Assembly (NCBI GenBank): GCA_964658135.1
Contig: CAZZXZ010000003.1
Location: forward strand, 5,914-69,913
Direction: 5' to 3'
Length of the DNA: 64,000 nucleotides
Origin: an uncultured Acetobacteraceae bacterium
GTDB taxonomy: Bacteria; Pseudomonadota; Gammaproteobacteria; Steroidobacterales; Steroidobacteraceae
Every line of letters starts with the position of its first letter. Within the stretch, counting starts at the first letter, position 1. Shown one piece after another: positions 41,284-42,563 of the stretch. Below the pieces are notes generated by a model. That model saw only the letters and a program-made list of their open reading frames with translations. It made no database searches and was not told the DNA's origin. Made by a program: the position numbers and the translations under genes.

Positions 41284-41877
41284 TCACGCCTCACGATGGC
41301 GAGTTCGGAACCATCCGCTGATACTCAATCGATCAACGCGGGTAGGCAGCACCGCGTGCTCCAGACCCTCCGTCATGAAGCACACGAGACGTCCCGAGAA
41401 CGGCTCGACATCGCGGTGACCTCCGTCGGCACCGAACACCCTGAGTTCGCCGCCATCCCCCGGCATCCAGGTTTCATTGAGATACAGGACCAAGGACACT
41501 CGCCGGTTGTCGCGGCCGCGTAACTGATCGAGGTGCCGCGCATATCCTGCGCCGGGCGGGTATAGAGCATAATGACATTCGACATCGAACAACCCGAGGA
41601 ACCCGGCACGGTTCAGATCGAGCCGCAGCAACTCGATTTGATCGAGCAGCCTGCGCTCGGGATCGAACAATGGCGTGCCGAGCCAGCACGTCGAATCCCC
41701 GCGAATGTCGTCACGTTTGCGCAGCAGTTCATCGGCGCCCACGCGCGCGGCCGTGAAGTTCCCGTCGCATCGGCGCTGTTCGGCGCATTGCCACAGTGAG
41801 CGAACCTGCATTGGCTGCAAAAACCCATCCTCGACCGCCACACCCTGCGCGAGGATTTTATCCGCCAGTCCTTCCAT
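41284..41877 (-). CDS. 2OG-Fe(II) oxygenase, prolyl-4-hydroxylase (PHD/EGLN, 'SM-20-related') type
   Basis: YALYPPGAGYARHLDQL...RRVSLVLYLNETWMPGDGGELRVF...LEHAVLP...RLSISGW shows the HxD...H iron triad and the RxS 2OG-binding motif. Confidence 0.8.
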   Translation of the reverse strand: MEGLADKILAQGVAVEDGFLQPMQVRSLWQCAEQRRCDGNFTAARVGADELLRKRDDIRGDSTCWLGTPLFDPERRLLDQIELLRLDLNRAGFLGLFDVECHYALYPPGAGYARHLDQLRGRDNRRVSLVLYLNETWMPGDGGELRVFGADGGHRDVEPFSGRLVCFMTEGLEHAVLPTRVDRLSISGWFRTRHREA

Positions 41878-41906
41878 CGCGCAGCACCCGGGAATGGATT
41901 ACCGCG

Positions 41907-42563
41907 TCAACGGCCGCGGCGCTGCGCCGCACCGCGTTTGGCTTTGAGGCCGCGCTGCGTAATGCCCTTTTTGCGCACGCTGCCCCTTTTGCTCTTGCCG
42001 GTCTTGCCGGCAGAATTCTTTGCGCGCTCGTTGAAAGTCTTCTGCAACGGTTTTTTGGCGACGCCTTTGGTGGCCCGCGACGCCGTCTTCTTCTTGCGCG
42101 GTTTTTTTCGCGCCACGAGCATGCTGCCGCGGCATTTTACCGCACCGCAACGGCACGCGAAGATTTCGTCGACGTTCGGTGGGTCGTCGGGATCGCGCTG
42201 AATCTGATAATCGTAGGCGAGTTCTTCGCCGGGTTCGATGGTACGAACCGCTTCGACGTAGATGCGTTTGTCCTGCGACGCACTCTCACAATTCGGATCG
42301 CAGCCATGATTGATGTAGCGCGCATCGTTACCGCCCACCCCGCCGTCGATGACGGTCTTCGAATCGACCGTGAACAAAAAGGTGTGGTTGTCGTCGGGCT
42401 GCTTGTTCTCGTAACGCGCATCCGCCTCCTCGTGGCTCACCCGGTCGCCGATGTATTCCATGATCGTCGTCCCCTTGCGGATCCGGCGCAGCGCAAACAC
42501 CCCGTAACCGTGGACGGGAGAGTGGCGTACTTCGATCATGGGGGGGCGCGCGGGCTTCTTCAT
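41907..42563 (-). CDS. SET-domain protein-lysine methyltransferase with post-SET Cys cluster and a C-terminal Lys/Arg-rich tail of about 68 aa
   Basis: HGYGVFA, RYINHGCDPNC, EELAYDY and the post-SET CRCGAVKCRG. In the tail ARKKPRKKKTASRATKGVAKKP...RGAAQRRGR I count 28 K/R out of 68 residues and one acidic residue. Confidence 0.85.
   Translation of the reverse strand: MKKPARPPMIEVRHSPVHGYGVFALRRIRKGTTIMEYIGDRVSHEEADARYENKQPDDNHTFLFTVDSKTVIDGGVGGNDARYINHGCDPNCESASQDKRIYVEAVRTIEPGEELAYDYQIQRDPDDPPNVDEIFACRCGAVKCRGSMLVARKKPRKKKTASRATKGVAKKPLQKTFNERAKNSAGKTGKSKRGSVRKKGITQRGLKAKRGAAQRRGR

Follow-up and report, generated by a model that had tools for sequence, protein, structure and literature searches.

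The window analysed here is a 64,000-nt (64-kb) stretch of contig CAZZXZ010000003.1 from a soil gammaproteobacterium of the Steroidobacteraceae. Two adjacent genes on its minus strand are the subject of this analysis: one for a SET-domain protein of 218 amino acids with a strongly basic C-terminal tail (41907–42563, with the stop codon at 41907–41909), and one, downstream of it, for a 197-amino-acid 2-oxoglutarate (2OG)/Fe(II) oxygenase (41284–41877). The spacer between them (41878–41906) is 29 nt long and carries no terminator-like hairpin. A first-pass annotation, made from the sequence alone, had described the same pair of open reading frames (ORFs), and its lengths, gap and common strand agree exactly with ours, the strand itself (minus) having been left unstated there. 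It had also proposed that the two enzymes make up one protein-modification module. The two genes proved to be what they had been taken for, while the proposed module did not find support: the SET gene appears to belong to an older housekeeping arrangement around thyA and folA, and the oxygenase gene looks like a lineage-specific insertion into it.

The catalytic part of the SET protein occupies residues 1–150 (42114–42563, minus strand), and its assignment rests on profile, motif and structure comparisons alike. The Pfam SET profile (PF00856) matches with E-value 5.4e-26 and 91.5 bits (cut-off 22.4), covering all 105 of its positions (1–105). The solved structures closest to the protein in sequence are those of yeast SET1, MLL1-4, NSD1-3, ASH1L and SETD2 (E-values from 1e-24 to 1e-16), with SET1, MLL1-4 and NSD2 at the top (E-value ∼1e-23). 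The four motifs that had been read from the sequence as SET hallmarks were located at residues 19 (GYGVFA), 82 (RYINHGCDPNC), 113 (EELAYDY) and 137 (CRCGAVKCRG). The residues for S-adenosylmethionine (SAM) binding and catalysis (G19-Y-G21, R82, N85-H86-x-C88-x-P90-N91 and E114-L115-A-Y117-D118-Y119) align to those of SET1 and NSD2, and the patterns GxG, NHxCxPN, ELxYDY and CxCx4C are all invariant in an alignment of 75 diverse homologues. The same invariance is seen in homologue alignments for the post-SET zinc cluster, formed by C137, C139 and C144 together with C88 of the NHxC motif.

An AlphaFold (AF2) model built on the 75 diverse homologues has a mean per-residue confidence (pLDDT) of 82.6, as compared with 43.5 when 41 near-identical homologues were used as input, and reaches ∼90–97 across residues 11–150. 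Foldseek aligned the model to the SET domains of MLL1 and MLL3 with E-value 5e-14 and TMt of 0.71–0.75, a comparison of the overall fold that leaves the pseudoknot topology aside. Thus, the 218-amino-acid protein is a canonical SET lysine-methyltransferase core of the MLL/SET1/NSD-like kind with a post-SET zinc motif. In SET enzymes a Tyr at the so-called Phe/Tyr-switch position predicts a mono- or di-methylase; the residue at this position of the ELxYDY motif is Tyr, and the protein is therefore predicted to be, and probably is, a mono- or di-methylase. The family already carries the automatic annotation ‘SET domain-containing protein-lysine N-methyltransferase’, while an exact look-up of the window protein in the contig index gave no record. 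Among its close homologues there are also tandem double-SET proteins, P0002 (362 amino acids) and P0003 (365 amino acids), in which two complete SET plus post-SET units are joined by a short basic linker and the basic tail stands at the end.

The remainder of the protein, residues 151–218 (41910–42113, minus strand), is a polycationic tail, predicted to be disordered. A recount gave the same figures as before, 28 Lys/Arg and a single acidic residue among 68, which corresponds to an isoelectric point (pI) of 12.0 as compared with 5.5 for the acidic catalytic domain; given these opposite values an intramolecular interaction between domain and tail is conceivable. In the AF2 model the pLDDT of the tail falls to 52–66, and secondary structure is absent from about residue 160 on. 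All 120 closest homologues (83–93% identity over the SET domain) have a basic tail past the post-SET motif, with a median length of 74 residues, 39% Lys/Arg and 1.6% Asp/Glu. The reading frame of the tail is retained, and is rich in Lys/Arg every time, in these 120 homologues as well as in the 80 genomic loci described below, hence the tail is not a product of chance. In sequence, the ends of the tail are conserved, its start ‘SMLVARKKPRKKK’ (proximal motif ‘ARKKPRKKK’) and a terminal ‘RRRGR’, and the middle drifts both in length and in sequence.

To place the tail in a wider family we used a homologue search over 1.84 billion cluster representatives, which gave 13,462 relatives at E-value ≤ 0.001 (176 at ≤ 1e-30), and surveyed terminal extensions in the best 150 of them (representatives of 50%-identity clusters). 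The post-SET motif is present in 117 of these 150; among the 117, a basic C-terminal tail 25 residues or longer occurs in 31 and a basic extension at the N-terminus in eight, and most of the others end in a short Lys/Arg cluster. Small bacterial SET proteins thus recurrently carry a polycationic appendage at one end or the other. Since composition is kept while sequence and length drift, selection seems to act on charge rather than on a motif, which suggests binding to a polyanion.

The tail had been likened to eukaryotic H1 C-termini and to bacterial Hc1- and AlgP-type proteins. The likeness stands for composition, for the scarcity of acidic residues and for predicted disorder; it does not extend to a family match or to the characteristic repeats (KPAA, AKKA). 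Neither Pfam nor NCBIfam matched H1, Hc1 or AlgP to the tail, or anything else outside the SET domain, and we therefore rejected homology to H1, the resemblance being one of composition only. An origin of the tail by repeat expansion was rejected as well, as the only tandem repeat in the SET gene of the window has two copies of 9 nt. Repeated units do appear in the tails of some homologues.

The second protein is matched by the Pfam profile 2OG-FeII_Oxy_3 (PF13640) with E-value 8e-20 and 72 bits, which, like the SET match, is well above the cut-off (27 bits). Its closest solved relative is Pseudomonas PPHD (4IW3/4J25; E-value 1.6e-45, 158 bits), with human PHD2 more distant (∼1e-11, 48 bits). 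The alignment with PPHD runs over 190 residues at 45% identity with zero gaps, and the iron triad (H115-x-D117 and H174) as well as the 2OG-binding R183 align with the corresponding ligands of PPHD and PHD2. The assignment to the PHD type (prolyl hydroxylase, PHD/EGLN) made earlier is thereby sharpened: judged by these alignments, the oxygenase is an orthologue of Pseudomonas PPHD, and we refer to it as PPHD below. Pseudomonas PPHD hydroxylates EF-Tu (PMC4543633). As EF-Tu is universal, the most economical assumption is that the window protein acts likewise, and its target is most likely the switch-I proline of EF-Tu. A defence-system reading of the gene pair was considered and rejected: PADLOC returned nothing for the SET protein and, for the oxygenase, a match to a generic ‘2OG’ Cas-associated domain of 81 positions.

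The surroundings of the two genes are those of a housekeeping cluster. Directly upstream of the SET gene lies thyA, encoding thymidylate synthase (42611 to ∼43402; Pfam Thymidylat_synt, E-value 5.6e-122), and next to it lgt, encoding prolipoprotein diacylglyceryl transferase (43408–44244; Pfam LGT, E-value 2.2e-73), in keeping with the thyA-lgt neighbourhood recorded by the first-pass annotation. An rlmI-like gene for a SAM-dependent RNA methyltransferase with a PUA domain (44249–45490; Pfam PUA_3 and Methyltrans_SAM) heads the cluster. All these genes are co-directional, on the minus strand, and both lgt and the rlmI-like gene are syntenic in relatives. The longest ORF for thyA (42611–43525, 304 codons from a TTG start) overlaps lgt by 118 nt, and since the Pfam domain begins only at its residue 42, translation probably begins near 43402, just past the lgt stop. 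The gene for dihydrofolate reductase, folA, is found on the same strand ∼24 kb downstream of the SET gene (16583–17065; tblastn 43% identity, E-value 8e-35). A promoter and terminator scan of the 40.5–45.7 kb region gave no more sites than shuffled sequences did, and none between thyA, SET and PPHD; this is compatible with an operon but is no proof of one. Past the 3′ end of the PPHD gene two convergent genes on the plus strand, for a HapK/EthD-like small protein (40154–40534) and a MarR-family regulator (40699–41238), mark the end of the conserved cluster; at the matching position in related loci they were not detected.

The gene order was followed by scanning GTDB species, each represented by a single genome; this returned 80 loci (L001–L080), all from Steroidobacteraceae or from metagenome-assembled genomes of unclassified Gammaproteobacteria, except one labelled Nevskiaceae. 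In the Steroidobacteraceae-type loci the conserved order is DUF255(−)/rlmI-lgt-thyA-SET-PPHD. The thyA gene stands directly upstream of SET in 75 of 77 informative loci, the stop of one and the start of the other often abutting or overlapping. Of the 75 informative family loci, 66 have PPHD directly after SET and on the same strand, with a median gap of ∼9 nt and, again, frequent overlaps; PPHD is missing from nine loci whose downstream sequence extends for 3 kb or more, and here other genes (LysR, Kup) and then folA come after SET. Further downstream on the same strand folA is found in 49 of the 80 loci, and in two of them (L055 and L072) the series thyA-SET-PPHD-folA is complete without any intervening gene.

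Scanning metagenomes with more distant SET sequences as seeds added 80 further loci. Twelve of these are linked to thyA and form a sister clade, with SET proteins 52–66% identical to that of the window; PPHD is present in just one (L093) of the seven that are informative. What follows SET directly is folA in L092, L095–L097, L099, L100, L102 and L105, as it is in L065 of the first set. None of the 38 SET loci that are not linked to thyA and are informative on both sides has a PPHD gene, and a 2OG oxygenase was also absent from three further SET contexts that were looked up (Gemmatimonadaceae and two other lineages). Clustering of the neighbours in 86 diverse SET loci gave no cluster that spans lineages; beyond thyA, lgt and folA the neighbours are clade-specific only. 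Thus the expected co-conservation of the SET and PPHD genes holds for the Steroidobacteraceae-type loci and breaks down outside them, and a joint function is not shown by a neighbourhood confined to one lineage. Judged from these gene orders, the older arrangement is lgt-thyA-SET-folA, with PPHD either inserted after SET on the way to Steroidobacteraceae or older and repeatedly lost; PPHD looks like a lineage-specific operon insertion, and the older and tighter partner of SET, on this comparison, is thyA/folA rather than PPHD. In the window folA has moved ∼24 kb away from the SET cluster.

In another part of the SET family a different neighbour recurs. In six loci (L146, L153, L156, L158, L159 and L164) the SET gene divergently adjoins, at a distance of 52–322 nt, a gene for a type IA topoisomerase that has a SWIB/MDM2 domain at its C-terminus; in L146, for instance, the topoisomerase gene occupies 863–3874 on the minus strand (Pfam Topoisom_bac, Toprim_Crpt and SWIB) and SET ∼3962–4666 on the plus strand. 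Two domains of ‘eukaryotic chromatin-like’ character are paired here in high-GC bacteria.

With the pairing so delimited, the more speculative half of the earlier proposal can be judged, namely that the oxygenase acts on the target of the SET enzyme, even as a demethylase-like eraser. Such an eraser would reverse or antagonise the SET mark on the same substrate by oxidative demethylation. Some 2OG oxygenases do demethylate N-methyl-lysine, and the adjacency of the two genes is itself a point in favour. Still, the oxygenase resembles PHD/PPHD-type prolyl hydroxylases at the level of orthologues: its Pfam matches are to the prolyl-hydroxylase-type profiles PF13640 and PF13661 only, its solved-structure matches are PPHD, PHD1/2 and P4H, and no JmjC or AlkB-type family is among either. 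With the pairing lineage-specific in addition, we give the eraser idea almost no credence.

The genes of the cluster differ in constraint. Over the 80 genomes the median identity to the window proteins is 77% for the SET domain, 79% for ThyA, 80% for Lgt, 76% for RlmI, 59% for PPHD and 46% for FolA. By this measure the constraint on SET equals that on enzymes of core metabolism and greatly exceeds that on PPHD. Taken together, adjacency confined to one lineage, thyA/folA as the older partner and the much faster evolution of PPHD speak against the two-enzyme module of the first-pass annotation, and nothing in the data points to a shared target.

The same figures bear on the question of whether the SET protein acts inside the cell at all. 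The well-studied bacterial SET proteins have all been described as effectors (PMC7819608, PMC10117894), and the window protein could be a secreted nucleomodulin like BtSET, LegAS4, NUE or BaSET, which would enter eukaryotic cells (of amoebae, fungi or plants) and methylate host histones, with the tail as a nuclear or nucleolar localisation signal. The SET core is indeed 35–40% identical to eukaryotic H3K4/H3K36 methyltransferases, a polybasic tail would serve as such a signal, and the sole NCBIfam match is to the SET part of Legionella AnkI/LegAS4. This last match, however, reaches 49.7 bits against the cut-off of 550 for the LegAS4 model (NF043024) and involves the SET region alone. In more than 75 species-level genomes, which belong to free-living bacteria of soil and peat, the gene is part of the housekeeping operon lgt-thyA-...-folA, and SET is under a constraint equal to that of ThyA. 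As to the statement that neither protein has a secretion signal, there is no room in either for an N-terminal signal peptide: the SET fold begins at residue 10 and the alignment of the oxygenase with PPHD at residue 4. The genes scanned in the window include ordinary metabolic genes, and no secretion-system genes are among them. ThyA-level constraint, the operon position and the missing N-terminal signal region together favour an endogenous function, and we regard a role as secreted effector as improbable.

The interpretation we prefer is therefore of an endogenous enzyme tethered to nucleic acid, with PPHD acting separately. The SET protein would be a cytoplasmic SAM-dependent lysine mono- or di-methyltransferase whose gene is probably transcribed together with the others of the housekeeping cluster rlmI-lgt-thyA-SET-(PPHD)-folA, so that the protein would be made along with the enzymes of thymidylate (dTMP) synthesis. 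Through its disordered polycationic tail the acidic catalytic domain would be tethered to a polyanion, which is most likely the DNA of the nucleoid, and there the enzyme could methylate abundant basic nucleic-acid-bound proteins (of HU/IHF type), lysines of its own tail, or both. PPHD would share the transcript with SET in this lineage but probably not the substrate, its own being EF-Tu. Two kinds of precedent exist for such substrates: chlamydial cpnSET has the H1-like protein Hc1 as its substrate, and NUE methylates itself (PMC10117894, PMC7819608). The occurrence of SET in two independent DNA-related neighbourhoods, with the genes of dTMP synthesis and with topoisomerase-SWIB, modestly favours a link to DNA or the nucleoid. 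The identities, motifs and fold of the proteins, the conservation and predicted disorder of the tail and the gene order are shown by the comparisons above; methyl transfer, tethering, substrates and co-transcription are inferred. For the chain as a whole we estimate a probability of roughly 0.45.

Several points weigh against it. The tail may bind rRNA, polyphosphate or acidic proteins rather than DNA, and SET may simply have been carried along, neutrally, in the stable operon of thyA and folA. Topoisomerase-SWIB is the neighbour in a single clade of distant homologues (45–51% identical to the window protein), and of the characterised bacterial SET proteins the closest are secreted effectors rather than endogenous enzymes. 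The tight and often overlapping SET-PPHD junction has been retained in ∼88% of the family genomes. In addition, among loci L001–L080 the tail is longer where PPHD lies downstream (median 46 amino acids, as compared with 26 without PPHD; Mann-Whitney p=0.009, uncorrected for phylogeny), which is compatible with some functional link between SET and PPHD.

The last two observations also speak for a module of the translation apparatus. Here SET, docked by its tail on rRNA or on the ribosome, would have a ribosomal protein or EF-Tu as its methylation substrate, PPHD would hydroxylate EF-Tu, and the two enzymes would be a true functional pair. The rlmI-like rRNA methyltransferase gene at the head of the cluster fits such a module, as does the reported EF-Tu substrate of PPHD (PMC4543633), and the tight same-strand junction is found in the divergent locus L093 besides the 66 family loci. 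At the same time, adjacency of SET and PPHD is missing in six of the seven informative sister-clade loci and in all 38 informative unrelated loci, and the two proteins have evolved at discordant rates (77% and 59% median identity). Eukaryotic SET enzymes are known to methylate ribosomal proteins and eEF1A, which counts for the module, while the occurrence of PPHD without SET in Pseudomonas counts against it. The recurrent neighbours of SET elsewhere are DNA-related (thyA, folA, topoisomerase-SWIB) and not translation genes. On balance we find a translation module unlikely.

Its strongest form makes use of a proximity in EF-Tu itself: the target proline of PPHD lies three residues from a lysine that is methylated in E. 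coli EF-Tu (K56), and to our knowledge the enzyme that methylates E. coli K56 has not been identified. SET and PPHD could then be a two-enzyme module writing adjacent switch-I marks, the proline being hydroxylated and the lysine three residues off methylated, with the tail docked on tRNA, rRNA or the ribosome. Our literature search found neither an enzyme for EF-Tu Lys56 methylation nor a substrate of an endogenous bacterial SET protein, an absence that is no proof. We look upon this version as a long shot. In a milder version both SET and PPHD may act on the fused tail itself, where lysines are numerous and the proximal ‘KKPRKKK’ supplies a conserved proline.

Other features of the window were noted in passing. 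A manganese (yybP-ykoY) riboswitch (53157–53327, plus strand; Rfam RF00080, 64 bits) immediately precedes a gene for a cation exchanger of the Na_Ca_ex family (53303–54346, plus strand), the longest ORF of which it slightly overlaps. Four ORFs with high GC content at third codon positions (99–427 amino acids), all on the minus strand, have no Pfam match at E-value < 1e-4: 27238–28521, 34735–35394, 35404–35703 and 47548–48045. The first of them adjoins a cluster of LolA-like, FtsX and ABC-ATPase genes (28524–31445).

Both enzyme families are known and annotated, and a coupling between them is unsupported beyond one lineage. SET proteins of free-living bacteria have been catalogued before (PMC3980110), and the post-translational regulation of bacterial chromatin proteins is still debated (PMC10117894). 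In our literature search we found no description of the conserved polycationic extension as a family trait, of the thyA-SET-folA operon or of the lineage-specific SET-PPHD junction, although absence from a search does not prove novelty. Well-studied bacterial SET enzymes have without exception been read as host-directed effectors, and the present family lends itself to a clean test of what such enzymes do in free-living species. Its members are single-domain enzymes of very high conservation with a polycationic tether fused to them; throughout a family of soil bacteria they are encoded in the core operon around thyA and folA, and among their thousands of relatives many have a basic N- or C-terminal extension. 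Once identified, the substrate would show whether bacteria apply SET-type methylation of lysines to their own nucleoid or translation machinery. For the study of EF-Tu prolyl hydroxylation, the PPHD gene next to SET provides a second lineage, outside Pseudomonas.

Among known systems, BtSET and LegAS4/RomA are, like the window protein, bacterial SET methyltransferases of the SET1/MLL-like kind, and BtSET is described as a mono-/di-methylase (PMC7819608, PMC10117894). They differ from it in being reported substrates of type III or type IV secretion systems that act on host H3, whereas the window protein is encoded in a housekeeping operon and has a long polybasic tail. With regard to LegAS4 the difference is also one of score, the window protein falling below the equivalog cut-off (49.7 against 550 bits); with BtSET the comparison is by description only.

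Closer in mechanism are cpnSET/NUE and the Go1-SET protein of Methanosarcina mazei, prokaryotic SET enzymes with evidence for substrates among prokaryotic chromatin proteins, which makes them a precedent. MC1-alpha is said to be a substrate of Go1-SET. There the H1-like basic protein and the enzyme are two polypeptides, while in the window protein a basic H1-like segment is fused to the enzyme, and the genomic contexts differ too. For Go1-SET, PMC10117894 lists only H4, in vitro, as substrate.

The tail in turn may be set beside the H1 C-terminal domain, Hc1, AlgP and the tails of mycobacterial HupB and TopA, with which it shares ∼40% Lys/Arg, a near-zero acidic content and predicted disorder. 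It is richer in Arg, Gly, Ser and Thr and poorer in Ala and Pro than H1 or AlgP, and has no detectable homology to them or repeat structure. The window oxygenase and Pseudomonas PPHD have the same length and the same iron triad and Arg; they differ in context, the window copy lying downstream of SET in a thyA operon.

The best matches to the SET protein overall remain the eukaryotic enzymes SET1/MLL1-4 and NSD1-3/ASH1L/SETD2, with which it has in common identical SAM-binding and catalytic motifs, the post-SET cysteine cluster, 33–36% sequence identity and a fold similarity of up to 0.75 (TMt), the alignment to NSD2 extending even into a basic post-SET stretch. Unlike them, it has no AWS/pre-SET, N-SET or WRAD-binding region, and it is a single-domain protein of 218 amino acids in a host without nucleosomes.

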